64,000 bases of DNA from a virus (taxonomy: Duplodnaviria; Caudoviricetes). Position 1 is the stretch's first letter. The number at the start of each line of letters is the position of its first letter. Of the stretch, positions 5,863 to 62,778 are shown piece by piece. The notes under the pieces are model-generated. The model was not told the origin of the DNA and ran no database searches. It was given only the letters and a program-made list of their open reading frames with translations. Where the stretch lies: the IMG/VR virus record IMGVR_UViG_3300035208_002115. One strand, written 5' to 3'. Made by a program: the position numbers and the translations under genes.

Positions 5863-6225
5863 ATGGTAATACAAAAACTAAATAAGGTAATATTGGACTC
5901 TAAAACTGTCATTATTAGAGAAAATATGGCTATTTTTATAAAAAATGAAATAGATAATAAATATATTAAAATAGTTAACGGGTTTTTATATATGCTTTAT
6001 AAAGTAAATGGTAAGCATTTATTAAATCGGAAAATTTTTATTAGAATTTCAGATAATATATTTGAGACTTGTTTAGAAGCTGATTTTGTTAATAAATTTG
6101 ATATAACATTCGAAAATTTTCATATAATAAATAATTGCTTATATTTAGTTGAGAATACATCCGATAAATTAAAAATAAATAAATTAATTCGAAAAGAAAA
6201 AATAAAAGAAATATTGGAAGTATGA
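5863..6225 (+). CDS. hypothetical protein with C-terminal RxxK[IL]xx[IL] tag
   Basis: Ends IRKEKIKEILEV. Confidence 0.7.
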   Translation: MVIQKLNKVILDSKTVIIRENMAIFIKNEIDNKYIKIVNGFLYMLYKVNGKHLLNRKIFIRISDNIFETCLEADFVNKFDITFENFHIINNCLYLVENTSDKLKINKLIRKEKIKEILEV

Positions 6226-6581
6226 GTATAATTACACATAAAATACAAGCTAAACCACAGGAAAACGGATTGTATGGTATGCCACTTACAATATTATCAT
6301 ATAAAATTACATATCCTAACTGGGAACAGGAATTTTTAATATCGGCATCAATAATGACTTTAACAGAAATTCACCCAGATAATAAATATGGTATTGAAGT
6401 GTGGTCTAAAAACATTATTCTAATTTACAATTACTCTGAAAAAAAAAGAAGTTCAATACTTTTAGATTATGCATATTTTAATGAAGGTGTATTTTATTAT
6501 GCTAATAAACAAAATCAAAGCGAAGTAATAGAATTAACTCAAATAAAACGTATACATAAAATTGAATCTATTTTAGAATAG
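6222..6581 (+). CDS. hypothetical protein with C-terminal tag
   Basis: Ends KRIHKIESILE. Confidence 0.7.
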   Translation: MSIITHKIQAKPQENGLYGMPLTILSYKITYPNWEQEFLISASIMTLTEIHPDNKYGIEVWSKNIILIYNYSEKKRSSILLDYAYFNEGVFYYANKQNQSEVIELTQIKRIHKIESILE

Positions 6582-6593
6582 AATATTTTATTT

Positions 6594-7992: not shown

Positions 7993-9576
7993 ATGCTAAA
8001 TTTATTATTTTCAGCTACAATATTAAGAGAGTTTCTTATTGGTTTATCATTCAAACCACTTGAAGAACGTATTAATATGATATTAGATTTAATAGGATAT
8101 TCAAATTTATATTCTTTTGAATTTATGGACATTTGTATTAATACAGGAGTAAATGATGATTTAATTGAACATATTTATTTGAAATCATATAAAGATGAAG
8201 AAATTTTAAAGAAAAATATTAGTTATATAAATACCGAACGGTACATCTTGCGAGAAGTTACTAATTCAACTAATTATCGTTTAGATGATGTTAAAAATGA
8301 TATTAATGATAACTTATGGGATTTGTATGATACCGCAGTGAAATGTGATAAACCGTTTTTAGTTGAATTAATCATATATGATAAACGTTTTAATATCGAT
8401 GATTGGTCATATCATATGCAACTTTTTGACTATTTAAAAGAACTTAAAAACCCAAGTGGTGTAATTAATGTGATGTTTTTAAATGAAAGGATATCTAAAT
8501 ACGCCAAATCACTTTATATTGAAGAACTTTTTAAAGAAAATAAATTCCCATTATTAAAATATATTATTGATGATAAACAATTGTTTAATAAAGAAAACGT
8601 AACCATCAATAAAAAAAACATCACTAAATACGCTATGAGAGCAGTGTTTTATGACAATGATGTTGCTTTATCTTATTTAATTGAAAATAAACAATTGTTT
8701 AAATTTATTAATATTGATAAGTTAGCTTTCTACACTGTTATCAATAATGATAGTTTTAAGTGTTTTAAATATTTGGTTGAAAACAACTACATTGATTTAC
8801 CGAATAAATATGAAGAAATTTCTACTTCGTGCGTGAAGGCGAAATCTTATGATTTATTGACAACACTAATATCATTTGATTGTATATCTGGTAAAAATAT
8901 ATTTAATCATTTAAAACCTATTATAAACAGAGAAAACATAAATGATATTATAGAAGTTTATGTTAATTCGGGTAAAGTTGATATTTATCAGGATGATTAT
9001 CATTTGTTTGAAAGATTAGCAGGTTCTATAAATAAAGAATCATTAAAATTGATTCTACAAAAAACTGTTTTAAAATTTGAGAGTGATGATGTAAGAAAAG
9101 TTATTAGAAAAACCATATTTCGTTCTGACCCAATTGATATGGAGTTAATTAGAGATTATATTACAAATACTGGTTTTGATGATGAAAATTATGTAGCTTC
9201 TGAGGCTATAATAGCTTTTTCCGAAAATTATTTCAATATTTTGTTAAAAAAATATCCAAAATATAAACTTCCAGATGATATTTATTATATGCAAATATTG
9301 ACTGATAGTAGTGGTGTATTAATAGAATATTGTTTAAATAAATCATTATTTAAAATTAAAAAATGGTCACACTATTTGATAAGTAAATTGTTAGATAAAA
9401 AAAGTCCTGATACAGCACTAATGGTTATAAACCATAAGAAAACAGTAATAAGAGATGAAACAATAACAGCTATTTATAAATTTTTTGATGCGAATAGTCG
9501 CATTTATCCCGAAGAATTTTTTAAGAAATTTAAAATGGCGATAAGAATGAAAAAGCTTGCTGATATAATATCTTAG
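7993..9576 (+). CDS. alpha-helical, ankyrin-like repeat protein with C-terminal tag
   Basis: Degenerate units (AVFYDNDVALSYLIEN, NNDSFKCFKYLVEN); ends IRMKKLADIIS. Confidence 0.5.
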   Translation: MLNLLFSATILREFLIGLSFKPLEERINMILDLIGYSNLYSFEFMDICINTGVNDDLIEHIYLKSYKDEEILKKNISYINTERYILREVTNSTNYRLDDVKNDINDNLWDLYDTAVKCDKPFLVELIIYDKRFNIDDWSYHMQLFDYLKELKNPSGVINVMFLNERISKYAKSLYIEELFKENKFPLLKYIIDDKQLFNKENVTINKKNITKYAMRAVFYDNDVALSYLIENKQLFKFINIDKLAFYTVINNDSFKCFKYLVENNYIDLPNKYEEISTSCVKAKSYDLLTTLISFDCISGKNIFNHLKPIINRENINDIIEVYVNSGKVDIYQDDYHLFERLAGSINKESLKLILQKTVLKFESDDVRKVIRKTIFRSDPIDMELIRDYITNTGFDDENYVASEAIIAFSENYFNILLKKYPKYKLPDDIYYMQILTDSSGVLIEYCLNKSLFKIKKWSHYLISKLLDKKSPDTALMVINHKKTVIRDETITAIYKFFDANSRIYPEEFFKKFKMAIRMKKLADIIS

Positions 9577-11588: not shown

Positions 11589-13676
11589 ATGAAATTAAAA
11601 AATTTAACAAGTTATAAAGATTTTTTACAAATAAAAGAAGCTAAAGAGTTTACCAATGATACAACTTGGAGTGAAAGTTTATTAGGAAAAGCAGTTGGTA
11701 GTTTACTAAAATTATTTAGTAATGGATTATCTAATGCAGTATTTTTACACTCAATAAGAAATATTAAAGGTGTTGTATTAGATGGTGTTGAAGAATATTT
11801 ATCTGGAAGTACAACTGGAACGATGAGTGGTACAACAGTGAACCCAATTGGTGCGACATCACCCGATGAAAATAACAGTGGAGAATTACAAACCCCTGAT
11901 GGTACACCATCTGGTATCACAAGTGATACAACTGAATCGAATTTACAATTTAAGTTTGGGGATGAAAATCTCGAATTGAAAAAAATGGAAGTTACTAATG
12001 ATGATGGTACAAAAAGTTATATAGATGTTGATAAAAGAGGTCAAGAAGTGCTGACACAACTGAAAGATTCTAAAGATATTAAAAGTATTGTAAATAATGA
12101 GTTTTTTAAAGATTCTATCAACAACTTGGCTATCAGTGAAATATCAAGAAAAATAAATGAATCAATAAAAACATATCAAAAAAATGCTGATGAATTTAAG
12201 AAAATAGAAGCTACAAATCCAAAAGAGAAGAAAGCACTGAATGATTTAGAATTGAAAAATAATAAACTTAAATCGTTGAAGTTGCAAATTACATATGATA
12301 AAGCTGATTTAATGATATTGAAATTTAAATTTGTAAAATTAAGGGAAGCAGTGAAAAAATTAGGTGGTTATATTTCACCCGTTGGAGAATTATTTATCAA
12401 TGGTCAACGTGTTGATTTTGAAACTTTACAACCAATAATAAAACCCGAACCAACAAAAGTAGTTGGGTCTGAAGATAAAAAGAGTGTTGGTGCTGAATTT
12501 AATGATGTGAAAAATGGTAAAATAATAAAGAAAAAAAATATAGTTCCCAAAAATAGTGGAAATACAGTTGAATCATTTTTTTATTTAGAAGATGATATGA
12601 TTAATGAAGCACTATTAGGTGGTTTTACCAGATATAACAAGAAAATTGAAGAACTCACATTACAACAAAAAAATAAAATTGATAAAGAAGCAGCTACGAA
12701 GAAAATAAATTTGAGTAAATTATATTCTTATCATTTATTATCTGAAAGGCAGTATATAAAAGGAGATGGTACTCGTGATGCTAAATTAGAGAATATTTGG
12801 AAACAAGATGTGTATAAAGCTTTATCAAGATTTAATGATTTAGTTAATGTAGAAAGGGTGAACCCATTCTCGCCATCTTTTGCTTTAAATAAAGAACAGA
12901 AAGATAATATTTCCACAGAATCAAAAGATAAAATTGATGCCACAAACACCGCACTTGGTACTGGTAATAGTGTTGCTGAAAGAGTTAAAAGAATTGGTTT
13001 ATCAGAAACACAAGTACCAGCCGAACATTTGAAAGGACGTGGTATAAATGACCTGTATATGTTAAATTTTAAATGGTCAACAAGAAGTAAAACAGTAGCT
13101 GAAAACGAAGCTATGGTTGCGGTCAAATATATGAATATTGGTGGGTTTGATGCCTTATTCTTAATTGATACATATAGTAAAGAATTTATGGATAAATATG
13201 ATATATCTAAAAATAAAATTAAAAATACGAAAGATATAAATTTAATTTCTTTTTTAGTAGGAACAACATTTAATATGGAATCTGGTGGTACACAGAGTAT
13301 AAAAGCTGCAAGTGATTATACACCATGTTTTATTTTTAAAAATAAATTAAAATTTCCAATCACTACGTTGTTTGTAACAAATGAGGTTCATGTTTTTAAT
13401 ATTTTAAAAGTGAATGATAAAGATGAGGTTTTTATACCAACTTTAACGACTAAACATCAAGAAGCTACAACATCAGATGCTATAAAAAAGGCTGTTATGA
13501 ATGATAATTTGTATAAAAAGAAATTAAATATAATAGCGGTTGATATATATCCAGTATTTGGTATACCAAAAGAATCAAGTGGTGAATATGTAACTAAAAA
13601 TAAAATTGACATTAATATTATTAATAATTATGCTAATGAAATAAAAGCATATTTTCAAAAATTAAATTTAGCATAA
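11589..13676 (+). CDS. putative virion/internal head protein
   Basis: 695 aa; SYKDFLQIKE leader and internal INE site. Confidence 0.55.
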   Translation: MKLKNLTSYKDFLQIKEAKEFTNDTTWSESLLGKAVGSLLKLFSNGLSNAVFLHSIRNIKGVVLDGVEEYLSGSTTGTMSGTTVNPIGATSPDENNSGELQTPDGTPSGITSDTTESNLQFKFGDENLELKKMEVTNDDGTKSYIDVDKRGQEVLTQLKDSKDIKSIVNNEFFKDSINNLAISEISRKINESIKTYQKNADEFKKIEATNPKEKKALNDLELKNNKLKSLKLQITYDKADLMILKFKFVKLREAVKKLGGYISPVGELFINGQRVDFETLQPIIKPEPTKVVGSEDKKSVGAEFNDVKNGKIIKKKNIVPKNSGNTVESFFYLEDDMINEALLGGFTRYNKKIEELTLQQKNKIDKEAATKKINLSKLYSYHLLSERQYIKGDGTRDAKLENIWKQDVYKALSRFNDLVNVERVNPFSPSFALNKEQKDNISTESKDKIDATNTALGTGNSVAERVKRIGLSETQVPAEHLKGRGINDLYMLNFKWSTRSKTVAENEAMVAVKYMNIGGFDALFLIDTYSKEFMDKYDISKNKIKNTKDINLISFLVGTTFNMESGGTQSIKAASDYTPCFIFKNKLKFPITTLFVTNEVHVFNILKVNDKDEVFIPTLTTKHQEATTSDAIKKAVMNDNLYKKKLNIIAVDIYPVFGIPKESSGEYVTKNKIDINIINNYANEIKAYFQKLNLA

Positions 13677-19016: not shown

Positions 19017-20120
19017 ATGGATACAAACTTATTATTAAATTACCTTAAAACTGATTCACCATCTACATATGAAGTAGAAGCACAAAAATTATGGGTGGCT
19101 GAAGCATCCAAATACGCTGATAATATTATAACAGATAATTATGGTAATGTAGCAGCTCTTATATGTGGTAAATGCACTGGTGACGATATTGGAAACCCTA
19201 TTCATAAGAAAGTAGTAATAGATGCTCATTGTGATGAAATAGGTTGGATTGTAAAATCTATAAATGATGATGGTTATATTAGTGTTGTTAGAAATGGCGG
19301 TACAGACAATGATATAACTATTGGTCAAAAAATAAAAATATTAACTAACCAAAGATATGATGATGGTGGTATAAAAAAAGTACAAGGATTCTTTGGTTGG
19401 ATTCCAATTCATTTGAAGAAAAAAGAAAATCCAGACAGACCAACTGAAGATAATATTTTTATTGATTTAGGTGTTATTTGCAAAAAAGACGTTGAGGAAT
19501 TGGGTGTTGAAGTTGGTAATTTTGTGGTAGTTGATAGAGAGCCAGAAATTTTGCATGACAAATATATAGTTGGCAAATCAATAGATGATAAAATTGGTGG
19601 ATTTATACTTTTGAGTATATTAAAAGAAATACGCACTCAAAATATAAAATTACCATATGATTTATATGTTGTTAATTCTGTTCAGGAAGAAATAGGACTT
19701 CGAGGTGCAGCTATGATAACAGAAACAATTAAACCAGATATAGCTATCTGTTTTGATGTCTCTTTTGACACTACAACACCACTTATTGATAAATCTAAAT
19801 ATGGTACATATAAAATCGGAGATGGTTTAATATTTAATCAGGGGTCAGATGTTCATCATGGTCTATTAGAACTTATGAAAAGTGTTGCTAAAAAGAATGA
19901 AATAAAACATCAAATTGAAATTCATAGAGCTGGTGGCACAAACACATATAGTTACTATTTATCGAACGGTGGTGTAGTTGCTGGTACAGTTGCTTTTCCA
20001 TTAAGATATATGCACACACCAAATGAACTTGTTGCTATGGATGATGTTGAATTGGCAATAAAGTATTATATTATATTATTACAAGAAATAAAGGAAAACC
20101 ATGATTTTAAATTATTCTAA
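19017..20120 (+). CDS. M42 family aminopeptidase
   Basis: AHCDEIG, DDKIG, VQEEIGLRGA, YMHTPNE. Confidence 0.93.
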   Translation: MDTNLLLNYLKTDSPSTYEVEAQKLWVAEASKYADNIITDNYGNVAALICGKCTGDDIGNPIHKKVVIDAHCDEIGWIVKSINDDGYISVVRNGGTDNDITIGQKIKILTNQRYDDGGIKKVQGFFGWIPIHLKKKENPDRPTEDNIFIDLGVICKKDVEELGVEVGNFVVVDREPEILHDKYIVGKSIDDKIGGFILLSILKEIRTQNIKLPYDLYVVNSVQEEIGLRGAAMITETIKPDIAICFDVSFDTTTPLIDKSKYGTYKIGDGLIFNQGSDVHHGLLELMKSVAKKNEIKHQIEIHRAGGTNTYSYYLSNGGVVAGTVAFPLRYMHTPNELVAMDDVELAIKYYIILLQEIKENHDFKLF

Positions 20121-22218: not shown

Positions 22219-23169
22219 ATGAGTGAATACTTTGATTATGATGATATCAATCTGATACCTAAGATGTGTATTGTTAATTCACGTTCAGAATGTAACACAA
22301 AGGTCAAATTGGGCGGTTTTACATTTAATATACCAGTTGTTCCAGCAAATATGGAATCGGTTATAAACGAAGATTTATGCATAAAATTGGCATCCAGTGG
22401 ATATTTCTATATTATGCATCGGTTTGGAGTGGATAATGTAGAATTTGTGAAGTATATGAAAAGCTTGGGGTTATACACTTCCATATCAATTGGAGTTAAT
22501 GGTGATTCATATCCAACATTAGAAAAGTTATTAAAGAATAATCTAATACCAGATTTCATAACTGTTGATATAGCACATGGACATGCCATTAAAATGAAAG
22601 AAATGTTGAAATTTTTAAAGAATAATTTCAAAAACACTTTTGTGATTGCTGGAAATGTATCGACTGCTGAAGGTGTCATGGACTTAGAAAAATGGGGTGC
22701 TGATGCTGTTAAAGTTGGAATTTCACCCGGGTCGGCCTGTACCACATCACCAACAACAGGTTTTGGTTCTCGTGGTTCGCAAGCCTATACTGTGAATTTA
22801 TGTTCTATGAATAGTACAGTACCTATAATTGCTGATGGTGGTATAAAAGTCCCAGCCGATATTGCAAAATCTGTTGTATTAGGTGCAACTATGTGTATGG
22901 TCGGTGGTATGTTATCTTCACATTCCGACAGTCCCGGTCGGACGGTTGAACAAAACGGAATTCGTTATAAAGAATTTTACGGGTCGGCCTCGGCTAAACA
23001 GAGTAATAAGAGAAATAGAATAGAGGGTACTGTTAAATTAAATTCGTTAAAGGATACCACTTTAATTGAATATTTAGAATATCTGGAAGAATGTTTACAA
23101 AGTTCTATTTCTTATGGTGGTGGTAATAGATTAGAAGATTTAAGATTAGTTGATTGGTATAAAAAATAA
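22219..23169 (+). CDS. guaC: GMP reductase
   Basis: [45 protein letters not shown]. Confidence 0.93.
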
Positions 23170-31628: not shown

Positions 31629-31907
31629 ATGTTTTTTAAAAATAAAAGAATAAAAAAGAATAAAATTCTTTCGACACCATTGATAAGTGTTATATCAAAT
31701 CTAAGTGTTATGAATCAGTCATTGAATAGTGGGAATACAAACACACCAATACGAACATCACAATCATATACACCCTCTTATATATCTGGTTCAACTATGA
31801 CTATTGAAGGTAATTGGGAAATGGAACGTGAAAGGAAAAGAATTGAAAGAAAAGGTAAGATAGAAGAATTATTCCCAGAATTAATATCTTTGTTAGATAA
31901 TGACTAA
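31629..31907 (+). CDS. small tagged protein
   Basis: ERKGKIEELF near the C-terminus. Confidence 0.7.
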   Translation: MFFKNKRIKKNKILSTPLISVISNLSVMNQSLNSGNTNTPIRTSQSYTPSYISGSTMTIEGNWEMERERKRIERKGKIEELFPELISLLDND

Positions 31908-32148
31908 AAAAATAAAGAACTTGAAATTAACATCCAAGGTGGTTTCAGTTAAAACAAGATGTATTAATGCTACAATAACACCTGAAATTATAACTGATTT
32001 ACAATCATTGGTTTTTAAATCGGAATGGATTCATGAAGATTTATTACATATTTTACGAGAAGAAGAACGCCAAAGAAAAAGGAAAGAACGTCAAGAAAAA
32101 TTAAAAAATATATTTGATGATGAAAACGATGGTATTTGGGACGTTTGA
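31900..32148 (+). CDS. small tagged protein with gp23-like fragment
   Basis: LTSKVVSVKTRCINATITPEIITDL plus ERQEKLKNIF. Confidence 0.7.
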   Translation: MTKKIKNLKLTSKVVSVKTRCINATITPEIITDLQSLVFKSEWIHEDLLHILREEERQRKRKERQEKLKNIFDDENDGIWDV

Positions 32149-32302
32149 TTTAGTGTCATCACCATCACATAGTAATAGTAGAATATATCCGAAAGATGTG
32201 TTTTTGAAGCATATAGAAGAATTAAATAGGCGCATTAATAGAGAGCAACGTAAAGAAAAAATTATTCAAATATTTGGCGATGAATTATTCGAAGGATGTT
32301 AA
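32114..32302 (+). CDS. small tagged protein with prohead-protease-like fragments
   Basis: TFDLVSSPS and NSRIYPKDVFLKHIEEL plus QRKEKIIQIF. Confidence 0.72.
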   Translation: MMMKTMVFGTFDLVSSPSHSNSRIYPKDVFLKHIEELNRRINREQRKEKIIQIFGDELFEGC

Positions 32303-32450
32303 AGATGAAGATATAATTTTAAGTGGTGATTATGTAACTTATCAAGACCATAAATTTGTTGTAGACAATGTTAATTATACACCCCGTCAGAGAAAAATTT
32401 TGATAAGAAAAATGAAGTTGAATAAAATTTTTGGTTATGAATTTAAATGA
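32280..32450 (+). CDS. small tagged protein (56 aa, not in ORF track)
   Basis: MNYSKDV...IRKMKLNKIFGYEFK. Confidence 0.65.
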   Translation: MNYSKDVKDEDIILSGDYVTYQDHKFVVDNVNYTPRQRKILIRKMKLNKIFGYEFK

Positions 32451-32601
32451 AAGTAAAATCGAGTTGTTAATGGACTTGCAGCGATACTGTGGTTTCGAGG
32501 TGAATTTTATATTAAATCAACTTGGGTTAGTTTCACCAGAAGAAAAACGCTTTGAACGTAAAGAAAAACTTAAAGAAATATTTGGAAATGATTTTCAATA
32601 A
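32437..32601 (+). CDS. small tagged protein (54 aa, not in ORF track)
   Basis: MNLNESKIELLMDLQRYCGF...ERKEKLKEIFGNDFQ. Confidence 0.68.
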   Translation: MNLNESKIELLMDLQRYCGFEVNFILNQLGLVSPEEKRFERKEKLKEIFGNDFQ

Positions 32602-32788
32602 AAAGGAATATGTTACAAGAGAGGAATACGAAAATTTATATGAACGACTTGAACAATGTATATCATATTCTGAACATCTTGCAAAAGCAATTAATGTGTT
32701 ATATAAATCATTTGAAAGTATATTACCGCCAGAAAGACTTAAAATATTAAGAAAATCAAAAATAGAAGAAATATTTGATGCCGAATAG
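32588..32788 (+). CDS. small tagged protein with scaffold-repeat-like fragment
   Basis: LEQCISYSEHLAKAI plus LRKSKIEEIF. Confidence 0.7.
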   Translation: MIFNKKEYVTREEYENLYERLEQCISYSEHLAKAINVLYKSFESILPPERLKILRKSKIEEIFDAE

Positions 32789-33032
32789 TGGAATAACAAT
32801 ATGGGGCAATAACACACTCACTCAAATAAGTGATTTATCGGATTATGGTTGTAATATGGAAACATATTTGACTGATATATTGACTGAAGAATTATCAAAA
32901 GAAATTGATAAACAAATTATTGAAACCCTGATGAACGACCCCATATGGAAAGAAGAACGAGCAAGGATAATATTACGAGAAGAAAGAAATAAAAAAATTC
33001 AAGAAATCTTTGGTGATGATTTTACTGTGTAA
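32778..33032 (+). CDS. small tagged protein with sheath-like and gp23-like fragments
   Basis: GITIWGNNTL; LTDILTEELSKEIDKQII; ERNKKIQEIF. Confidence 0.72.
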   Translation: MPNSGITIWGNNTLTQISDLSDYGCNMETYLTDILTEELSKEIDKQIIETLMNDPIWKEERARIILREERNKKIQEIFGDDFTV

Positions 33033-33563: not shown

Positions 33564-33758
33564 ATGAATATATTAGAGCAACAATCTTTAGGTCGTGTAA
33601 TAAGAACCCAGAAAAAAATAATAATTAATAGTGTATATGGTGGTTCATCTATGAAATACCCAGTATCTATTACAATGGTGTTTCCACGCAAAAGCTATAC
33701 GAGAAAACTAAAATTAGAAAAAATATTTCCAGAGTTTAAAAATGAAAAACACAAATAG
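33564..33758 (+). CDS. small tagged protein with helicase motif VI-like and PolB motif B-like fragments
   Basis: QSLGRVIR; KIIINSVYG; TRKLKLEKIF. Confidence 0.72.
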   Translation: MNILEQQSLGRVIRTQKKIIINSVYGGSSMKYPVSITMVFPRKSYTRKLKLEKIFPEFKNEKHK

Positions 33759-33891
33759 CAATAAAATAGTTGAATTATATTTAGAATTTAAACAAAAACA
33801 TCCAGAATATTTTAATTATTTAATGGGATTAATTAAACGGAATGAACGTAGTGATAAGTTAAAAGAAATATTTGATGATAAATTAAAATAA
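33742..33891 (+). CDS. small tagged protein (49 aa, not in ORF track)
   Basis: MKNTNS...ERSDKLKEIFDDKLK. Confidence 0.62.
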   Translation: MKNTNSNKIVELYLEFKQKHPEYFNYLMGLIKRNERSDKLKEIFDDKLK

Positions 33892-35577: not shown

Positions 35578-35653
35578 AATATTTTTAATTTTTTTTTTGT
35601 CTTTTGTAGTCTTATATATTATCGCTAAAAAGCGACTTTTTTCCATATTTAGA

Positions 35654-38059: not shown

Positions 38060-38224
38060 AGAATGATATACTTATTTTTTTTGTAGTTTTGTAAGTATAT
38101 ATTTTATTCGAAAAGCGTTATTTTTCTATTTTGATAATAATGTAATATTGACTTTAAATAAACCAGTTTGATTTAAATGATATTTTTTAAATTTTTTTAA
38201 TATATATTAAAAAAAATAAAAGGT

Positions 38225-40462: not shown

Positions 40463-40798
40463 TTATTGACTATTTTTTAAAGAATTAATTGGAAACCAAT
40501 ATTCTTTTTTAAAAGGTATTTTTATATTACCGTTTATTATCAATTCTTTAGAAGTATTTTTAATATCATTCACATTGATTACTTCATATGTAAATGGTAA
40601 ATTTGCATCACCATTTATTTTAACTTCACCAAGACTATCATCCCATTGAACATCTTCATGATATTTTCTCATCAACTCATGAACTTGTTCTTTAGCTTCT
40701 TCTCTGGTTATACCATCAACTGGTATAATGAATTTTTTATGATTAAATTCAGTATGTTTTTTTTTAAATCTTTTATCAATAAAACTAAATAATCCCAT
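40463..40798 (-). CDS. mini paralogue of the portal clip segment
   Basis: KKFIIPVDGITREEAKEQVHELMRKYHEDVQWDDSLGEVKING vs portal KKFIIPTDGLTRAQAEQQIFQLMSEYHEDVQWDDRLGTVKING. Confidence 0.85.
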   Translation of the reverse strand: MGLFSFIDKRFKKKHTEFNHKKFIIPVDGITREEAKEQVHELMRKYHEDVQWDDSLGEVKINGDANLPFTYEVINVNDIKNTSKELIINGNIKIPFKKEYWFPINSLKNSQ

Positions 40799-40916
40799 TT
40801 TTATGATATTTTATTTTATCTATATATAAAAATATTAAGTCTTTGTTTATTTTTTAGTTCCAATACTTATAAATTAAGAATATAAGGCTTGGGTCTTATA
40901 ATATTAGATTATTAGA

Positions 40917-48287: not shown

Positions 48288-48620
48288 ATGAACAATCATT
48301 ATCAAAGAGTAAAGCAAATAATGGATATCCCATCCAGTGATTTACAACATCACATGAAACGTGTAAAGAACATTGTTGATGTGAAAGCTGTTGGTGATAT
48401 TGACAAGCAGAAAAAATTAGCTGTTACGATGGCTAACCGTATTACAGATATAGATAAGTGTTTCGGTCGTCATCTTGTTTCACAAGAATTAAATCAGACC
48501 CATCTGGCTAAAATTTTCCTTAATCGATTTAAAGAATTGACTTATTCCACGAAGGATTATCGTAGGGAAAAGTTATTAGAAATATTTGGAGATTGGGATG
48601 ATGAACCTGAAAAAAAATAA
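48288..48620 (+). CDS. hypothetical protein with C-terminal tag
   Basis: YRREKLLEIFGD. Confidence 0.7.
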   Translation: MNNHYQRVKQIMDIPSSDLQHHMKRVKNIVDVKAVGDIDKQKKLAVTMANRITDIDKCFGRHLVSQELNQTHLAKIFLNRFKELTYSTKDYRREKLLEIFGDWDDEPEKK

Positions 48621-50836: not shown

Positions 50837-51127
50837 ATGATGATGAGAATAGGTGAAAAGTTAACATACTGGTATAGAAGTGACACAGTTAGTGTGGGTC
50901 AGTGTGTTGATTTGATAATAAATGACAATGTAGTTGAGACTATTACAATCGCTTATATACATTATAATCGAGATAGTGCTGATAAAGTTTGGTTTGGAAA
51001 AGAAAACCCATATACAGGAGAATATATAGGAAAATCAAAATTTACAAGAACATATAGTAAAATATGTGTAACTACAAACAAAGGAATCCTGAGAAGAAAA
51101 ATGATAGAAGCTCTTGAATTAATATAA
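50837..51127 (+). CDS. hypothetical protein with variant C-terminal tag
   Basis: LRRKMIEALELI. Confidence 0.6.
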   Translation: MMMRIGEKLTYWYRSDTVSVGQCVDLIINDNVVETITIAYIHYNRDSADKVWFGKENPYTGEYIGKSKFTRTYSKICVTTNKGILRRKMIEALELI

Positions 51128-51140: not shown

Positions 51141-51467
51141 ATGGCAGAAAATGATATTTTTAAAAATAGGGTGGCCTCTAATTTAGACCAAGTAGCCCCA
51201 AGAAAAATTCCTCTGGGTGCTTATATTATAAAAACAGTTGACGAATCGGGGTTTCTTCATAGTAAAAAAGATAAACCAGCTATTGAAATGGCTACTGGTA
51301 CTAAATTCTACTACAATCACGGATGGTTACATAGATTGAACGGTGCAGCTATTATTCACGAGGATGGTAGAGAAGAATATTTTATTGAAGGAAAATTTAT
51401 CCCTTCTAAAGAGGAACACACACGTTATTCCCGTTTACTTAAAATTCAATCACTTGACCTTTTTTAA
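51141..51467 (+). CDS. LHRxDGPA-type repeat protein with C-terminal tag
   Basis: LHSKKDKPAI, LHRLNGAAI; SRLLKIQSL. Confidence 0.7.
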   Translation: MAENDIFKNRVASNLDQVAPRKIPLGAYIIKTVDESGFLHSKKDKPAIEMATGTKFYYNHGWLHRLNGAAIIHEDGREEYFIEGKFIPSKEEHTRYSRLLKIQSLDLF

Positions 51468-54317: not shown

Positions 54318-54761
54318 CTACTTAATGACTACCTTCGTTGGTTTCTTAACTTTTTCCTCTAATTTCTGAATATCCAACTTCAAGATACCATCTTTAAATT
54401 CAGCTTCTATTTTATCCATATTAGTATCCTTTGGAATCTGGTAAGATTTTTTGAAAGATGATTTCTTGAATTGTCTCATACAATAAACATCTTCTTTTTC
54501 TTCTTTTTCTTCTTTAATGTCGGCTGATATCGAAAGAATATCATTATTAATATCAATCTTGATATCATCCTTATTAAAACCAGCCAAAGTTAGTTCTAAA
54601 ATGTATTTATCTTCCATCTCCTGAATGTTCGTCTTAACAGAAGGTGTGTAATCAAATACCGATTTAAGTGTCGAAAAATCACCCTTTAAATCGAAAAATT
54701 CATTAACTAAATCTAAAAAGGGTGAATCTGTTCTTGGCCTGTAAACTAAATTTTTTAACAT
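54318..54761 (-). CDS. small heat-shock protein Hsp20
   Basis: NIQE..Y.LE..LAGFNKDDIKI, SFKKSYQIP, AEFKDGILKL. Confidence 0.93.
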   Translation of the reverse strand: MLKNLVYRPRTDSPFLDLVNEFFDLKGDFSTLKSVFDYTPSVKTNIQEMEDKYILELTLAGFNKDDIKIDINNDILSISADIKEEKEEKEDVYCMRQFKKSSFKKSYQIPKDTNMDKIEAEFKDGILKLDIQKLEEKVKKPTKVVIK

Positions 54762-54900: not shown

Positions 54901-57512
54901 TTAATTATAATCCACGCTGTCTTTATCGGCATACAATGTTAAACAATAATTAATAAATTCATCACCATTTATATCTGGTTTAGTATTAATAAATTTTATT
55001 AAAGCTTTCTGGACATTATATAAAATCGAAAGTTCTAAATTATTCCACCATATACCATAAGAAGAATCGTCAATTGAATGTATTTGAGATTTCATATTAT
55101 ATAACTTCCCATATTCTTTACTCTTATCTCCACCCACTGGACACATAATAATTAAACTAATTGGGTTATATTTCCTATTGTAAAGATGAAGCATAGAATC
55201 TTTATCCACTTGTTTAACCGTCCATAATTCACTTCTATGTATGATTTTACCAGATTTATCTGTGTGGTGAGTTCCCTTAAACCAAGTGTTAAGATATTTA
55301 CCGATATTTTCTTTTGATAAGTCATAAACAAAATATTTATTTGTATCTTCCTCAATACCTTTACAATCTTTTTTATCGTGGGTTTCTCCGTATGTGGGAA
55401 ATTTCCTTGTTTTTGATAAATTAGATAATTGTTCAATAAAGTTATTCATTTTTATAATTTGTTTACATATTTGTTAAAGCTTTTATCCCATATGAAGCCA
55501 CGTTCTTCCATAAACTTTATATATTCCTCAGTTGGTAATTCAAACATAATTTGTAGTTTACTGAACTTTGAGGGTTCGTATGCCGTTGGATTAAGGCCAC
55601 AATTTAAAAATATAGTATCAGGCACTTTAAATGCTTTATTCAATAATTTCTTTTTCTTTCTCCAATAAAGAATAGGTGTGATTACTATAACATCCTCATC
55701 ACTTTTCAATTCAGAAAATATAAAATTATTTGGAGTGATGGGAGCAAATAAGTCGTCCTTTTTAAATTTGAAATCACACACAGGACAATAATAATTTTTA
55801 TCCAAATCACCGCCACAGAATATACACTTAGGGGCATCTGGTATCAGAATATTATCAGAATCATTAATAGAATCTTTCTGGAATTGTTGAGGCATATTAA
55901 TATCCTCATCACCTTTTAGATTTTTATTTTCTTTATCCTTTTCAGCATCATCGGTTTCCCAAGTATATTTCATATTGGCTATTTCATCTTCATCGAAAAA
56001 ATCATTTATTATCTTCTTTGATTTTTCCTCACCAAAATAAGATGTTTCTTTATTTTTTTCCATATAATTTGTTTTTTAATCTTTCATTTAGTACAAGTTC
56101 TTCGGTTCTTATATTTCTACAAACCAAAAATATTTCTTCTTTATATTCGCCATTATACTCATCGATAGGTTTGAAAGTTTCGATAACTTCTTCTTTAGTT
56201 TTATCTCCAGAAACATCTATGACATAAACTTCATTAGAATATTTCAGTGATATTTTAAAAAACGGTTTCCCCTCATTTTTATCGAATCTGCTCGGTTTTC
56301 TATCGTATTCTTTAAGACACCAAACAAACCCCTCATAAGTTAATTCTTTCAATGGATTTTTAATTTTACTTAAATCTTCATTCAAAGAAGATAATCTAAA
56401 TGACGGACATACTTCAAGTTTATTTTCGTTGCATATGTTATTATAATGGTCTTCATATTTAGTGCTGTTTCTACAAGATAGAAATAAGTCAGGTAAATTA
56501 TATTTTATTTTTTTATTTTTAGGTTCTTTAAAAATTTTATAAGTTGGTAAAAATTCTGGTATCGGTAAATTTTTAATATAACCTAAAACGTTTTTATACA
56601 CCCAATTGTAAATATAATACTCAATATCAGACAAACGATAGTATTGACAATCATTAATACCAGCCGAGTATTCTCTACCACAGTCGTCATCATTTAAAAA
56701 GAAATATTCTTTGTAATAATTATTTTCGAATGTATCAAATACACCTTTCTCAAATCCAAATAATTCTTGAAGTTTTTTTGACCTTAAAAATTTATTATGT
56801 TGTATCTCACTATTTTCGCATTTTTCCTTCGGTTTATAAGGTTGTAATGAATATTGTAAATACCATTTATCACGACCTTGCATTTTAGTGTGAATTCCTC
56901 TATGACCTAAAAATCTTTTTTTATCTTTATTCCAATTACCACCAGTATAAACAATTAACTGACCAGACATATCATCATATACACTACATTCATAATAAGG
57001 TATTGATATAGTTGTTAAGGTGTGATTTCTGTCAGATAGAGATAATCTGAAATCATTTCCTTTTATATAATAAAGAGTTATTTCTTTAGTTGCATCATTA
57101 AAGGAAAATTCAAATTCCATATCTGGTATATTGAAATTTCGTATTCGTAATTCATATAATAGTTCACGATAAACACGGGTTCTCATGCATTTATATATAG
57201 TGGGATTATTATCATACTTAAATTTAGCCCTTCTGCCATTTAAGTCGATTAACACACGTTGATTATTTATCGACAAATTATCCAACATAGTATTTAATTA
57301 TTTGCATCGGCAATTGCTAATTTCTTAGCAGCACTAATAGATGTTATACCAATTTCAACTTCAATTTTTTCCATTCGGACTCTTTTATATAATGTCCAAC
57401 CTTTTGGTTCTTTGTTTATTTGGTATAAAGAATATTCATCATATTTATCCAAAACTCTAAATTCATGATATATAGAGGTTTGTGTGGCTTTAATATCTAT
57501 AATTTCTTTCAT
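54901..57512 (-). other. hypothetical CDS 54901-55449, 55452-56063 (zinc ribbon), 56050-57288, 57294-57512
   Basis: Co-directional operon after TAnnTTTG at 57533-57540. Confidence 0.7.
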
Positions 57513-57976
57513 AAGATAATTTTATTAATAAGCAAAAATACGCAAAAATATGTTAAAAAAAAATCCCACGCTTTTTATTTCGTGGGATTAAAAATAATCA
57601 TATGACAATATAACTCTGAAGCATTTATTTATATATCTTTTTATTCAAATTGTTTTGAAAATTCATCAAAACATTTTCTCGAACAAAAATTATTTACCAT
57701 TATAGTCGATACACCTAACAATTCTTTAATATTAGTGTCTTTCGCTGGTGTGTATAATGAATCACAATTAATACATCTTATATTTTTATCGATATAATAT
57801 GACACAAACCGAGTTGGGTCGATTATATTTTGGTTATTTGAGTTCATTTTTCTCAATATTTTTTAATTCAACATCACATAGAATATCAAGGGCTTTTAAT
57901 AATTCTTTATCATTTTCATTTTCATGTCTTAAACTCATTTGTAAATGAAATATTGCTTTTCTTAAATGTGAGAGTG

Positions 57977-58441
57977 TCATTCTAATATTTCTTTTATTTT
58001 TTCTTTTCTTAAAAATATTTTATAATCTTCATAATCTAATATAAAAGTGAATTCTCTCATCTCATAGCTGTATTCTTCTATTTCATAAAATGTTAAAACA
58101 AAATCATCATTACTTTTTTGAAAAGATTTCAAAAAACGATAAAGACCATTAGAAACAATATTATTATTATCTAAATAAAGTTGTAATATATGATACGTTT
58201 GTACATAATCATTTGATTTATTTTCCAAATCCAATCTCTGTATCAAATATACAACAAATAAACAACCGACTTTATAATAATTAGCTTTTATAAAAGAACT
58301 TAAATTTTCTTTCTGCTTAGAATCTATAATATCAAATATTTCACCCTTATCATTAGTGAATTCTTCTCCAAAAGTCATTTTAAGCTTATGTATAACATCA
58401 CAATTAAGTGTTTCCAATATTTTTAAATCATCTTTTATCAT
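57977..58441 (-). CDS. hypothetical protein with C-terminal tag
   Basis: LRKEKIKEILE. Confidence 0.7.
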   Translation of the reverse strand: MIKDDLKILETLNCDVIHKLKMTFGEEFTNDKGEIFDIIDSKQKENLSSFIKANYYKVGCLFVVYLIQRLDLENKSNDYVQTYHILQLYLDNNNIVSNGLYRFLKSFQKSNDDFVLTFYEIEEYSYEMREFTFILDYEDYKIFLRKEKIKEILE

Positions 58442-58508: not shown

Positions 58509-61157
58509 TTACCTACGCCTCATCCTAACCCCTCTTGCTTTCAACACATCCTTAACAACATGAATCTGAAAATCAGTATATTTTTCTGATTTTAGCATGT
58601 TCTTTAGTTTTTCTGTTGATTCTTTTTTCATACGGTTCACAACTCTTTCTGAACGAATTGGTGAACTTAATCGTCTTTCCAGAATTTCATTAATAATGAC
58701 TTTCTGATTATCATTATAATGATTCGATACTGTCATTCGCATTAAATCCTCTGTTGAGTCTTTTTTAAATCTGCGTATCCATCTTTCTGTTATGATACTT
58801 CGTCTTTTAGTAAACATTTTTTTTACTTTTTTGTGAATAATTTTGGTAGTTATCTTTTTTTCTTCAATATGTATAGCTTTTATATTCTGTGAACTTGAAA
58901 AAGTTGTATTTTTTGTGGTATTTTTTTCTTTTTTTCTTTTTACCACTGGTTCACTTTCAAATAAACTACTAACTACATTATTCTCAGTTATATTCTCAAT
59001 AACAACCTCAAACATATCACCAATTTGCTCAACAGTATCTGGAAAAATATCTACAATATTATCTACAACCTCATTTATAACAGGTTTAGTTTCAGATTTT
59101 GTCTCTGGTGTTTTTTCTATTTTTGGTGTATATGTTTTTCCAAAAATTATTTCTTGCCAATGTTCTACGAGCATTATCATCGCAAAAGTGTCGAGTTCAC
59201 AATATTTAAGAAGTGATTGAATAACACTATTTCGTTCAATTTCACTCATTTGAGAGAATTGTATTTTAGCATAAGCTGTCATAGCTGCGCCACCATCCGA
59301 AATTTTTTCAGCACTTACAAAAGTTTCCACAATAGACTGGTCAATATCGACAAAGGTCTCAGGGAGCGTTTTATAAGGGTCATTTACTTCGCCATCTTTA
59401 TAAGTCAACCAAGTATGATTCTTAAAATTTAAAGATTTAATTTCACCAGTGCCATAAATTGGTAAAGTATATTTGGTTTTTAAAAAACTACTCGATTTTA
59501 GTATAGCTGGTAATACATATTTTATTGAATTCGAACCTTCTGTAATTGGATTATAATAATATAATTTTAAAACTTCCCATAAATCTACCATATTTCTTTC
59601 ACCAACCCAATTCTCAATATCCAATCTACCATATTCTACTGATGAAGACTTATAAGTAATATTTTTAATAAAATCAATTATTTCCTCTTTATCTGGTTCT
59701 GAACTTTCAAATAAATTAATCAAAATGTGATTTAAGAAAGTATTCTCATGTGGCGAATAACGGAAAATAGTTCCATTATCAACTTCCAGTTGTTTTTTCA
59801 ATTCTCTGATGAATTCAAAGTTTGGATTGAATCCTATCTTACGATTGATATACTCACCTGCATGTTCAACCCGACCATCTTCATACATAATATGATGAGA
59901 AAATTGAAAAGCTATACCTTCATATGGTCGTAGACCAGCATGAAATGGTATGGCTACCGTAGTGGTTTCAAAATCTATCATATGATATGGGTACTTCCAT
60001 GTCAGCATTTCACCTTTTAACTTTTCATCAAGAACGAATATGTTATTGTCATTAGTTAATGTTTTCACTATCTGGATTAACTGTCTATCTTTTTGTTCGA
60101 TTTTTTCAGTAATTTTATCCATATAATATTGACCATCTTGTATAGTTTCAACGTTTTTGTTGAACTCTGATAGGTCAATTTTTTCCATCAGAATATTACC
60201 TGCATTGATTTGTTTATCTTTGCCACGATAATTCCATATATCCAACACTGTCGGTTTACCATAATTGGTTTGACCAACCAAGGGATTATTTAAAAAACAT
60301 TCTCTTTTACCATTATACCATCCACGTTTTTCCTCGTCTTCTGTGCAACTAAATTGACAATCACCACATTTTTTACCAAGATGTGTAACTAATTTTTCAT
60401 TTTTTTCGAATGACTCCATTAATAATGTTAACCATTCGTCAAAGTTTCTACCTTCGGTATATTCATAATTATCAATTAAATCGACAACCGAATCAACACA
60501 TATCGGAATTAAAATCTGTTCACCAAGAGCTTCTTCACTTACATCACCATTGATTATAACTTTTGTATTACCATTATCATCCTTGGAAAGAATAAATTTT
60601 TGATTGAGATTATCAACAGTTGTGATTTTTGTTTTATCAGCCATCATTAAATAGGACTCGATGGCATAACGTGGGAACAATTTTGATAATATCCAACGTT
60701 GATATGCGACATCGTACATCTGGTCAATCCACTCGGCCTTGATTATACTTGCACCTCTTTTGTTTAGAAATTGGTCAAGCCCCAAATCATTAATATATGA
60801 TTTAGATTTAACTTCTATCAATTTTAGAACATTACCAGTTCTAATAAGGATATCGAATCTGGAAATAAATTTTCCAAATATTAAATTACCTTCAAATAAA
60901 GTTACATTTGTTTTCTTCAAATGTTTCTGAACTTCTTTGAAGTTATCTTCTTCGTTCAATGCCGAATCAAGTTCAATACCTGATGGATAATAGCATTTTG
61001 CTAATTCTCCAACTTGAAAACCACCCTCGGCAATAGCTTTTAGAAAAGGGTCTTCGTTACGATTATCTTTGTAAAGATGATTGTTGGATGCATAGTACAA
61101 CTTGGTACGGCAATCCAATGCATTTTTAAATAGGGATTTACTTAAATATTTTTTCAT
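58509..61157 (-). CDS. DUF2779-type protein (N-terminal PD-(D/E)xK-like plus RNase H/exonuclease-like domain) with C-terminal extension
   Basis: LSKS, FDIL..LIEVKS, YDVAYQ; IDFET, FQFSHH, SNSIKYVLP, LLKYCELDT. Confidence 0.8.
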   Translation of the reverse strand: MKKYLSKSLFKNALDCRTKLYYASNNHLYKDNRNEDPFLKAIAEGGFQVGELAKCYYPSGIELDSALNEEDNFKEVQKHLKKTNVTLFEGNLIFGKFISRFDILIRTGNVLKLIEVKSKSYINDLGLDQFLNKRGASIIKAEWIDQMYDVAYQRWILSKLFPRYAIESYLMMADKTKITTVDNLNQKFILSKDDNGNTKVIINGDVSEEALGEQILIPICVDSVVDLIDNYEYTEGRNFDEWLTLLMESFEKNEKLVTHLGKKCGDCQFSCTEDEEKRGWYNGKRECFLNNPLVGQTNYGKPTVLDIWNYRGKDKQINAGNILMEKIDLSEFNKNVETIQDGQYYMDKITEKIEQKDRQLIQIVKTLTNDNNIFVLDEKLKGEMLTWKYPYHMIDFETTTVAIPFHAGLRPYEGIAFQFSHHIMYEDGRVEHAGEYINRKIGFNPNFEFIRELKKQLEVDNGTIFRYSPHENTFLNHILINLFESSEPDKEEIIDFIKNITYKSSSVEYGRLDIENWVGERNMVDLWEVLKLYYYNPITEGSNSIKYVLPAILKSSSFLKTKYTLPIYGTGEIKSLNFKNHTWLTYKDGEVNDPYKTLPETFVDIDQSIVETFVSAEKISDGGAAMTAYAKIQFSQMSEIERNSVIQSLLKYCELDTFAMIMLVEHWQEIIFGKTYTPKIEKTPETKSETKPVINEVVDNIVDIFPDTVEQIGDMFEVVIENITENNVVSSLFESEPVVKRKKEKNTTKNTTFSSSQNIKAIHIEEKKITTKIIHKKVKKMFTKRRSIITERWIRRFKKDSTEDLMRMTVSNHYNDNQKVIINEILERRLSSPIRSERVVNRMKKESTEKLKNMLKSEKYTDFQIHVVKDVLKARGVRMRRR

Positions 61158-61180
61158 GATTAAATAATTAAATGTGATGG

Positions 61181-62778
61181 TTAATCCATCATTGCTTTAA
61201 TTATTTTTATCATTCTTTCTTCGTTTTGTTTGAAATTTAAGTAATTTTTTTTGATAATATAGAATTCTGGGTTTTCTCTTTTAATTATTTGAATATATGA
61301 TTCAATTTTAGATATGTAACTTAATATAAATTCTGGTTTGGTATCCATAAATATAGTAAGTTCTATTTTATCAGTTCCTCTAATCAAATTTGGTGAAATT
61401 TTATAATTGGGGTCTTTATTTATTTCTTTATTAAAATCAATTCTGTTACTATCACACCATTCTTCTTTATATGAAAATGGGGTATATATATCAACAAATT
61501 CTCTATCAAGTTTTTTTAATTGCTCTAATATATATTCTGGTGTAACAGGATTAGTCATATCAATTTATTTAATCCAAATTTAATTCTTTTAATTTAAAAT
61601 ATCTCAGAATTACATTACCATCTAAAATAACTTTTTTATCTTTAGCATTAATAAATCTTAACTGCGCTATATCTTGTTCTATTAGTTTATACCACCGTTT
61701 ATCTATTGGGCGCATGAATATGTGAAAATAAAAATCAAATTGTGCCACATCATCAATACAATATTTTGTTTCTTGAATCGGGTCATCATCATTCCAATAA
61801 TACATATCCATTTCATACAATAAGATATATTCTAAATCATATATTGGAAACCCCTTTTTGACATAGATAAATGTTTCTTTTGGGTCGAGCATTAAAAAAT
61901 CTTCGGTTAATTCTTTTATCATTTAATAATCATTTTTCCATATGGTATTTTTTCCAAGTTTTTTTGCAACGGCTTGTGCAACACTATTTATTGAACAACC
62001 TAAAAAATCTTTCCATTGGGTTTTAGGATTCATAATACAAGAATTTCCTCCAGAGGTTAAATATATCACATCACCAGAATAATCCACTTGGAAATAATCC
62101 AGAAAATCTTTACACCTTATCAATTCAATATCAGTCATACTTCCAATATAGTTTTTAATTTTATAAGTCGAGAAATCTTTTTAGCATCATATACAGTTAA
62201 ATAAACATTAGCACCTATTAAATTATCAATTTTTCTCACTTCCAGTGTTTTATATTCACCCATAGGATGTAAAGATAATAATAAAATATTATTATTTGAT
62301 ACCATATTTTTATCAAAATATTCAGGTACAAATTGAAAATTATTCATCAAATACTCTACATATGGGTAAATTAAATCACCATTTGGTATATTAATCAAAA
62401 CATCAGCGATGTCTAATCTCCCCATTGTGAATTCTTTAGGACACTCCATCATTTAAGTATATTTGATATTTTAAGCATTCTGGTAATTTGAATATCATCT
62501 AAAACAGTAAAAGTACCCAAAATGTTAGCTATTTCAACTCTTTTTTTAATCTCTATGACTTTTTTCTCTGAAAGAGGATTGAAGCGTAATATCAAAATAT
62601 TACCATCTGAAATTATATAATTAGTTAAACTATCCCTAAATGTAGAAGCTAAATACATAAAATCATATCTTTCCACAAAAATGTCTATATATGGTTTTAT
62701 TTCATTACCATCCTGTAATGATATAACCGTAGTTGTATTCATTAAATAATTTTCTGTGAATTGCTCTGGATAATACAT
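61181..62778 (-). other. five small CDS (61181, 61569, 61923, 62135, 62449); four carry the C-terminal tag or a variant
   Basis: ERMIKII, LRYFKLKEL, SRLIKLKTIL, TRMLKISNIL. Confidence 0.7.

Follow-up and report, generated by a model that had tools for sequence, protein, structure and literature searches.

A Strict C-Terminal R-x-x-K Tag on the Fast-Evolving Accessory Proteins of an Uncultured T4-Related Megaphage

Introduction

Why would a phage place the same short motif near the C-terminus of many small proteins whose bodies differ completely? The question is raised by a stretch of 64,000 nucleotides (the window; 27% G+C), positions 509,370-573,369 of the 675,678-bp virus record IMGVR_UViG_3300035208_002115 (G000). 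There a sequence-only reading had noticed R-x-x-K-[IL]-x-x-[IL], here called the tag, near the end of 18 open reading frames (ORFs), nine of them in one array, and had proposed an amphipathic docking helix for one hub. We followed the tag through the whole genome and its relatives. With moderate confidence we favour the reading that it is a one-faced docking or address helix for one shared reader, carried by an early, fast-evolving accessory proteome.

G000 is an uncultured T4-related megaphage, 98% complete according to CheckV, to which the standard genetic code fits. Among GenBank phages, DNA matches were found only in the 735-kb records LR756501/LR756503. Genome-wide counts rest on our own crude gene calls (1156 genes, 94% coding), and a gene was counted as tagged when the motif lay within the last 25 residues of its product. 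For comparison we used G001, a 640-kb sister genome with direct terminal repeats, rated 100% complete, whose capsid protein is 94% identical, and two relatives retrieved via the capsid protein: G002 (IMGVR_UViG_3300022868_000009; 344 kb, 48% complete, capsid protein 64% identical) and G003 (IMGVR_UViG_3300025858_000010; 243 kb, rated complete, capsid protein 60% identical).

Frequency and Residue Strictness of the Tag

Genome-wide, 163 of the 1156 genes are tagged, about one in seven (~14%). The sequence-only reading had suggested comparison with a composition-matched null; when each last-25-residue tail was shuffled 500 times, 4.65 ± 2.2 tagged genes were obtained, with a maximum of 11, and the tag thus stands far above composition. 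The density of the motif per 1000 positions is 5.6 at C-termini, 0.16 at internal positions (a 35-fold excess of the former over the latter), and 0.39 in ORFs outside the gene calls. In its extended form the consensus reads [KIL]-x-x-[IEL]-R-K-[LEK]-K-[IL]-[KE]-E-[IL]-[FL]-[DGE]-[DE]. Two forms are common: an F form (...I-F-G/D-D/E, usually with a few residues beyond) in 72 genes, which include all nine array genes and ORF 48288, and an L form (...I-L-E-(V)-stop) in 48 genes, which include 5863, 6222, 57977, 62135, and 62449. Between 1 and 15 residues follow the tag genome-wide; they are often charged, and endings such as ILE, ILEV, and IFGDDFTV occur.

The strictness of single residues was tested on the G000 proteins by varying one position while the remainder of the motif was held fixed. 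At position 0, R was found 120 times and K 7 times, despite Lys being far commoner than Arg in the proteome; at position 3 the counts were 120 for K and none for R. Only I or L stands at position 4, without a case of V, M, or F, and position 7 is I in 105 cases, L in 15, and V or M in 3. Shifting either spacing by one residue abolished the signal. On a helix, by geometric reasoning, R0, K3, and the hydrophobic positions 4, 7, and 8 would fall on a single arc of ~140 degrees. A pattern of this strictness is the signature of a stereospecific protein-binding face and speaks against an amphipathic or membrane helix of the generic kind. The strict R/K identity and the single face fit a docking helix for one specific reader, and to that extent the earlier proposal holds; the likeness to a box motif on interchangeable substrate receptors that was drawn with it is conjectural.

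A membrane-targeting amphipathic helix of the MinD/FtsA type was considered, K-h-x-x-h-F-G (h, hydrophobic) being superficially like the MinD tail. However, R, K, and I/L are not replaceable in the tag and three hydrophobic residues stand amid many acidic ones; we rejected a membrane helix on the residue strictness given above (R:K 120:7 at position 0, K:R 120:0 at position 3, no V, M, or F at position 4). The motif could also be the by-product of a DNA or RNA signal at gene ends (a promoter, coupling sequence, or recombination site), as might suit the A-rich coding sequence and the overlap with the next start codon seen in 48% of tagged vs 20% of untagged genes. Against such a signal, 16% of tagged genes stand last in their unit, and synonymous codons vary as in the background. 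The nine array tags are written with different codons (Arg AGA/CGT; Lys AAA/AAG; hydrophobic residues ATA, ATT, TTA, TTG, and CTT), and codon usage at every tag position genome-wide equals the background usage of that amino acid (Arg AGA, CGA, AGG, CGT; Leu TTA, TTG, CTT). The conserved object is thus the peptide, not a nucleotide element, and we rejected a DNA-level repeat or promoter overlap on these grounds. As judged from the codons, selection on the tag acts at the protein level. The membrane and nucleic-acid explanations are, taken together, barely credible.

The Tagged Gene Class

The bodies of the tagged proteins had been described as unrelated, and this was borne out: BLAST placed the 163 proteins in 156 components. 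About 7 of the 150 longest match any Pfam family, namely an Acb3 inhibitor of the cyclic-oligonucleotide-based antiphage signalling system (CBASS; E = 2.6e-25), an ankyrin-repeat protein, DUF4987, short Gp23 and DNA_pol_B pieces, and a SprT zinc ribbon. Acb3 has been described as a direct binder of CD-NTases (bioRxiv 10.1101/2025.07.23.666291). For the ten larger tagged proteins of the window, no Pfam or PHROGs match was obtained, and a search of the ESM Atlas with a tag region gave no match above chance. As had been noted from the sequence, the tag is absent from core enzymes and structural proteins: none that Pfam recognises in the window carries it.

The tag is conserved while the bodies diverge. 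In G001, 104 of 988 genes are strictly tagged. Reciprocal best hits in that genome were found for 98 of the 163 tagged genes; 87 of these 98 keep the strict tag, and most of the others carry near-variants such as RKYKIEKMF. In the 98 pairs the bodies are 56% identical, R0 96%, K3 97%, and positions 4, 7, and 8 75-82%, while the x positions of the tag are conserved like the body. The tagged genes are also the faster evolving ones, with an orthologue identity of 58.6% vs 78% for untagged genes (75% when the untagged set is limited to genes up to 200 aa), and a BLAST match in G002 was found for 1 of 163 tagged vs 157 of 993 untagged proteins (p = 3e-10). Orthologues of tagged proteins could not be detected in the lineages that carry other tags, so that no swap of tags between orthologues was seen. 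They cluster as well, with 67 adjacent tagged pairs vs 22.8 ± 4 expected. The tag is thus confined to one gene class, mostly small, tandemly arrayed, and fastest-evolving genes.

These arrays raise the possibility that there is no reader, and that the helix is the remnant of one hugely expanded paralogous family with a role in folding, self-association, or protection of small proteins from host C-terminal proteolysis. Many tagged genes do lie in tandem arrays with local paralogues, and the nine array members of the window have ~20 residues of charged helix in common ahead of the tag. However, the tag sits on demonstrably different families, with sizes from 49 to 527 aa (Acb3, an alpha-solenoid, capsid and protease fragments), orthologues gain and lose it, and conservation of one face with R/K identity would be needless for folding or capping. 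A reader-free origin is in our view very unlikely.

Tagged ORFs of the Window

The 18 ORFs listed in the sequence-only reading were translated again, and R-x-x-K-[IL]-x-x-[IL] is present in all of them; the ninth tag position is followed by 1-10 residues. ORFs are named here by their first coordinate. When all frames of the window were searched for ORFs of 40 aa or longer, no others had the strict motif within the last 25 residues. At the left end, 5863..6225 (+) encodes a 120-aa ORFan without Pfam or PHROG match (tag RKEKIKEIL at 6190-6216, 2 residues before the stop) in a TAnnTTTG-led unit, and 6222..6581 (+) a 119-aa ORFan (RIHKIESIL at 6549-6575) whose G001 orthologue, 61% identical, has RKHKIENIL. 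This tagged pair, 5863-6581, is adjoined by a gene for a TnpB/Cas12f-like protein (OrfB_IS605 and TNB domains; 4327-5667, -).

The largest tagged protein of the window, 527 aa, is encoded by 7993..9576 (+), with the tag RMKKLADII at 9544-9570. AlphaFold2 modelled it as an all-alpha solenoid (predicted local distance difference test score, pLDDT, 77) with the tag within the last helix (residues 507-526), and its orthologues, 55% identical, retain AIRxKK[LI]ADI[IL]S. The protein had been called ankyrin-like. Pfam finds no Ank repeat in it and Foldseek gave only weak matches of the ARM/PPR/DARPin type, with low template-modelling scores, so that the description survives for a generic alpha-solenoid; as modelled, the protein would be ankyrin-like only loosely, as a binder built of helical repeats.

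Downstream of the array, 48288..48620 (+) encodes a 110-aa ORFan (RREKLLEIF at 48561-48587, 10 residues before the stop) whose G001 orthologue (89% identical) has retained the tag. The 108-aa product of 51141..51467 (+) has one WLHRLNGAA unit, like a MORN variant, no Pfam match, the tag RLLKIQSLD at 51432-51458, and the C-terminus QSLDLF. On the opposite strand are a 154-aa ORFan, 57977..58441 (-), with RKEKIKEIL at 57983-58009 in a TAnnTTTG-led unit, and a small local family of paralogues: 61569..61922 (-), 117 aa, RYFKLKELN at 61578-61604; 62135..62452 (-), 105 aa, RLIKLKTIL at 62144-62170, for which the AlphaFold2 model is poor; and 62449..62778 (-), 109 aa, RMLKISNIL at 62455-62481. The variants reported in 50837 (RRKMIEAL) and 61181 (RMIKIIKAM) are likewise present; the former is a 96-aa ORF, 50837..51127 (+), with a degenerate tag (ILRRKMIEALELI) and the latter a 125-aa ORF, 61181..61558 (-), with a degenerate tag (ERMIKIIKAMMD). 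The one internal copy, RSKKLQELF at 56758..56784 (-), was also found as described, at residues 169-177 of the 412-aa protein 56050-57288.

The Nine-Gene Array and Fragments of Core Proteins

The nine tagged ORFs at 31629-33891 are 31629, 31900, 32114, 32274, 32431, 32552, 32775, 33564, and 33742, as had been claimed; the + frame ORFs 33118 and 33341 are antisense to a real gene and do not belong to the array. The members, all on the + strand, overlap each other's starts and are 31629..31907 (92 aa; RKGKIEELF at 31848-31874), 31900..32148 (82 aa; RQEKLKNIF at 32089-32115), 32114..32302 (62 aa; RKEKIIQIF at 32249-32275), 32274..32450 (58 aa; RKMKLNKIF at 32406-32432), 32431..32601 (56 aa; RKEKLKEIF at 32557-32583), 32552..32788 (78 aa; RKSKIEEIF at 32750-32776), 32775..33032 (85 aa; RNKKIQEIF at 32985-33011), 33564..33758 (64 aa; RKLKLEKIF at 33702-33728; in a TAnnTTTG-led unit), and 33742..33891 (49 aa; RSDKLKEIF at 33847-33873; the last gene of its unit). 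An inverted repeat, a terminator by eye, follows 33742..33891 and precedes the convergent capsid gene.

The array thus lies between the N-terminal part of a split family-B DNA polymerase gene (30141-31622, +; exonuclease domain and first third of the polymerase domain) and the gene for the Gp23-type major capsid protein (33940-35646, -). The remainder of the polymerase is a separate 485-aa ORF 120 kb off on the opposite strand (G000 659109-660566, -). Next to the capsid gene are those for an 801-aa protein with a gp21-like prohead protease N-terminus (GEFDHP; 35654-38059, -), whose C-terminal helix is kept in all relatives whatever their tag, and for a T4-type portal (38670-40457, -).

Several array bodies resemble pieces of these and other large proteins. 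The 32114 body is similar to residues 1-70 of the prohead protease (profile E = 5.5e-4 to 7e-4), 32274 has a weak BLAST match to the protease N-terminus, and 32552 is weakly matched by the protease profile at positions 242-275 (E = 0.028). The 32775 body weakly resembles capsid residues ~335-375 (E = 0.011), and its G001 orthologue matches the same region. The N-terminal half of 31629 weakly resembles residues ~534-584 of the 695-aa protein 11589-13676 (profile E = 0.009), and 33564 contains KIIINSVYGG, like family-B polymerase motif B (by eye only). The E-values are weak, and the matches are therefore only suggestive of array bodies being pieces of neighbouring large genes. A conserved protease segment, ERKKQLGVIYGE, i.e. 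ERKK(Q/T)LGV(I/V)YGEFDHP, aligns with the 32114 tag and is like the F form except at K3; this segment may be the origin of the 32114 tag, or the likeness may be due to chance.

We asked whether the tagged proteins are decoy fragments of core proteins. Profile searches that covered 182 families picked out 33 small ORFs as fragments or paralogues; 5 of them are tagged, the same share as the genome average, and the decoy explanation was rejected for this reason. The description of tagged bodies as protein fragments thus stands for some array members and not for the class: fragments are not preferentially tagged, and decoys would account for a few members and not for the tag. Immediately upstream of the portal gene, an untagged 111-aa ORF (40463-40798, -) contains two copies of portal profile positions 275-334 (E = 2e-25) and is a portal-derived mini-gene; G000 also has six capsid-derived mini-genes, two of them tagged.

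Leader Motifs and Timing

Two motifs dominate the intergenic leaders of G000. A TTAATATATA-like motif stands ~21-24 nt upstream of start codons, is 10-13-fold enriched in intergenic leaders, and heads the capsid, portal, polymerase, and many other units, with examples at 38060-38150 (upstream of 38059) and 40799-40890 of the window; this ATATATA motif looks like the phage's own promoter type. The other, TAnnTTTG, is the known -7 element of the Bacteroidota. Several tagged units had been seen to follow host-type promoters of this kind, and the preference extends to the whole genome: 57 of 200 genes are tagged in units with TAnnTTTG only (28.5%) vs 15 of 342 in units with the phage motif only (4.4%; odds ratio 8.7, p = 4e-15). 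In the window, 5863-6581, 7993, 33564-33891, and 57641-58441 belong to this TAnnTTTG type. Going by their leaders, the tagged genes are probably early and transcribed by the host polymerase.

As to the host, a 974-aa protein of the phage (G000 20528-23452, +; locus L003:879-3800) contains PKD repeats and ends in a CHU_C domain, a type IX secretion signal. From this domain, a Bacteroidota-specific export signal, we infer a host among the Bacteroidota, to which the sequence points.

Other Tags in Related Phages

The relatives of G000 and G001 carry other tags. In G002 the R-x-x-K tag is found on 3 of 519 genes, and 53-57 of the 519 end exactly in h-x-E-[GA]-x-K-[LM]-G-L-[LM]-COOH (loci L105-L122). 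G002 also encodes a ClpA/ClpC-type double-ring AAA+ unfoldase of 718 aa (L112:11411-13564), the only one among the four genomes; ClpP is absent from all four. The combination of a ClpA-type unfoldase with an ssrA-like non-polar tail hints that the tags may be read by AAA+ machines. In G003, a basic helix followed by [VI]-D-P-Y-G-E-E-x-W ends 14-17 of 304 genes (loci L092-L104), and the DPYGEE-x-W motif occurs a further 28 times internally. The same ending is present in LR756501 (L236:1106-1468), and we found no paper that has the DPYGEE-x-W string in such a context.

In 80 IMG/VR huge-phage contigs (22-39% G+C), tags of the type R-[KDE]-x-K-[IL]-x-x-[IL]-L, with an ...ELG[IL] subtype, are common in the 20-kb regions that surround MoxR homologues; such tags also occur in the published huge-phage genome LR756502. 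The recurrence in dozens of huge-phage contigs, together with the other tags of the sisters, indicates that the tag is old, widespread, and exchangeable genome-wide for another. Full-text searches of the literature returned no description of it, including for LR756502, and the tag is thus undescribed in the papers searched.

The wide distribution of the RK/RD tag, in many phages from many samples, is what a universal host target would explain, and a dock on a conserved host hub (a chaperone, protease, RNA polymerase, or ribosome) has to be weighed here; the tag would then mimic a host motif, and the tags of the lineages would reflect their hosts or hubs. The tagged genes are probably early, and they are fast-evolving and of the takeover type; no phage-encoded reader was found. 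On the other hand, close sister phages with similar G+C (25-27%) use entirely different tags, and one of them brings its own Clp unfoldase matching an ssrA-like tail. We consider a host hub fairly unlikely.

Candidates for the Reader

The docking reading calls for a reader, and candidates in the four genomes were examined in turn. A clamp-binding motif was rejected, since the C-terminal part of the polymerase ends in a T4/RB69-like GFFSSIFDF, unlike the tag, and R0/K3 are foreign to all clamp motifs (PIP-box, bacterial QL[SD]LF, T4 SLDFLF); a clamp-like end, QSLDLF, is found only on 51141. No clamp gene was matched in G000 with Pfam PF00712, PF09116, or PF02916, although a divergent clamp is likely given the RFC-like clamp loader that is present. 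A Clp degron was rejected for G000 as the genome has no AAA_2 or CLP_protease match and further residues separate the tag from the free carboxyl end.

The capsid shell and the prohead protease deserve more space, for a capsid-targeting signal would be an explanation of its own: the helix would bind the interior of the procapsid (shell, scaffold, or core), and tagged proteins would be packed and injected with the DNA. The design would fit, a short shared tag on hypervariable accessory proteins of which at least one is anti-defence (Acb3). There is a precedent in the P22 scaffolding protein, whose C-terminal helix docks via R-x-x-K (R293/K296) on an acidic patch of the HK97-fold shell (PMC9965877). 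The nine-gene array adjoins the capsid and prohead-protease genes, and [IL]-x-E in the tag (42% of tags have E as residue 6) is like a T4-type protease site. However, no conserved cleavage site lies beside the tag, tagged genes are underrepresented where the leader has the promoter motif of head genes and overrepresented where it is host-type, and 163 different cargo species would lack precedent. Shell and protease were rejected as readers because they do not co-vary with the tag: the N-terminal 140 residues of the capsid protein and the N-terminal 100 of the protease are nearly identical across the lineages with RK (basic-helical), GLL (non-polar), and DPYGEE.W (acidic) tags. Packaging into the capsid is an unlikely explanation.

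The sole AAA+/peptidase pair found in G000 is a MoxR ATPase with a vWA-metallopeptidase (G000 184817-189010, in a TAnnTTTG unit). Such pairs in jumbo phages have been described as likely assembly chaperones (Iyer et al. 2021; PMC7824862). The pair was set aside since its presence, its neighbouring genes, and its insertion or length variants do not follow the tag, and on these comparisons it would be a rather improbable reader. A membrane-anchored BCS1-like AAA+ ATPase (G000 632267-633565, -; L034:9437-10732) was rejected because it is absent from the tag-bearing sister genome of 640 kb, where a 56-aa remnant is left of it. When conserved proteins were selected that lack the tag and have no counterpart in G002 or G003, 149 candidates were left, too many to single one out, and the early-class ones scanned among these (GmrSD_N, NAD synthase, RtcB, OmpA-like, and others) are ordinary enzymes, none of which suggests a reader.

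A Proposed Docking Helix for a Shared Reader

We return to the docking helix, which we favour. In this model the tag would form an amphipathic C-terminal helix with R0, K3, [IL]4, [IL]7, and [FL]8 on one face, and this face would fit a hydrophobic groove, rimmed by acidic residues, of a shared reader protein. The phage would have placed this handle on ~14% of its proteins, the products of small, tandemly arrayed, fastest-evolving, and probably early genes, among them a CBASS inhibitor of the Acb3 type, an alpha-solenoid binder, and mini-proteins that would derive from phage head and polymerase genes. That a single reader exists is probable. If it does, we lean towards one encoded by the phage and not by the host. 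More tentatively, docking might decide the fate of the tagged protein or of its bound partner via an AAA+ unfolding or proteolysis machine, either by timed clearance of early proteins or by adaptor-type delivery of captured host factors. Still more speculative, and on balance doubtful, is the extension to a clade of giant phages with a lineage-swappable addressing system, in which each lineage would tag 5-15% of its proteome (the early arms-race proteins) and a lineage-specific machine, a ClpA-type unfoldase in one case, would read each tag.

Several points weigh against the docking model and its extensions. No reader was found among the candidates examined. The MoxR/vWA pair occurs in G000 and G001, which have the tag, and equally in G002, where 3 of 519 genes are tagged, and is absent in G003; 11 of the 80 MoxR loci have no tag nearby, and the insertion and length variants of MoxR are independent of tag richness. 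The association with Clp comes from four genomes, one of them only half complete. AlphaFold2 was confident for no small tagged protein, and the model of the 105-aa 62135 protein was too poor to use. Early expression is read from a promoter-like motif, and the first four array genes lie in a phage-motif unit downstream of the polymerase gene.

Should a single reader serve ~160 proteins, its discovery would at once assign a function class to the largest block of dark genes in megaphages. It would also show which ORFans are early accessory or anti-defence proteins and would offer biotechnology a portable 9-residue handle. Were the addressing system real, it would be a timer that clears early proteins, or a set of interchangeable receptors, similar to proteolysis-targeting chimeras (PROTACs), that deliver host defence proteins for destruction. 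The replacement of the tag genome-wide in sister phages would be a natural experiment in motif and reader co-evolution.

Other Genes of the Window

Apart from the genes discussed above, the window has one (23709-26036, +) for a two-component protein of the hybrid type, whose 775 aa comprise a receiver, PAS, HisKA, HATPase_c, and another receiver domain. Auxiliary genes are those for an M42 aminopeptidase (19017-20120), an IMPDH/GMP-reductase-like enzyme (22219-23169), and an Hsp20 small heat-shock protein (54318-54761).

Comparison with Known Systems

Similar to the PIP-box and the clamp tails of T4/RB69, the tag is C-terminal, has an h-x-x-h-[FL] pattern, and is often followed by acidic residues; clamp motifs, however, have no counterpart of the invariant R0/K3, and the phage's own polymerase tail GFFSSIFDF has neither R nor K. 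The helix of the P22 scaffolding protein, and the cargo peptides of encapsulins, offer the parallel of a C-terminal R-x-x-K helix docking on a shell (PMC9965877), but in the phages studied here shell and protease are unchanged across tag lineages and the tagged genes lie outside head-type units. The capsid-targeting sequence (CTS) of T-even phages is close in logic, being a short peptide common to hypervariable, small, unrelated accessory and anti-defence proteins of a T4-related phage. Unlike the tag, the CTS stands at the N-terminus, is removed at [LI]-x-E by the prohead protease, and serves a handful of packaged proteins, whereas the tag is C-terminal, has no conserved flanking cleavage site, covers ~14% of the proteome, and follows early-looking leaders.

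The poxvirus ankyrin/PRANC proteins and the cellular F-box receptors likewise join variable binding bodies to a constant C-terminal module for a common hub. There is no sequence relation (no Pfam match to such modules in 150 tagged proteins), and the tag has 9-12 residues vs ~40. No Skp1-like hub was found here, and none is known in bacteria. Terminal peptides or helices read by an unfoldase are found in the AAA+ degrons and adaptor tails (ssrA, the MuA tail, the ClpX-binding tail of SspB) and in the MIT-interacting motif (MIM) helices bound by the MIT domain of Vps4, and in this the tag would resemble them. It differs from an ssrA-like degron in not standing at the free carboxyl end; the K[LM]GL[LM]-COOH tail of the sister contig G002, by contrast, does have non-polar residues there.

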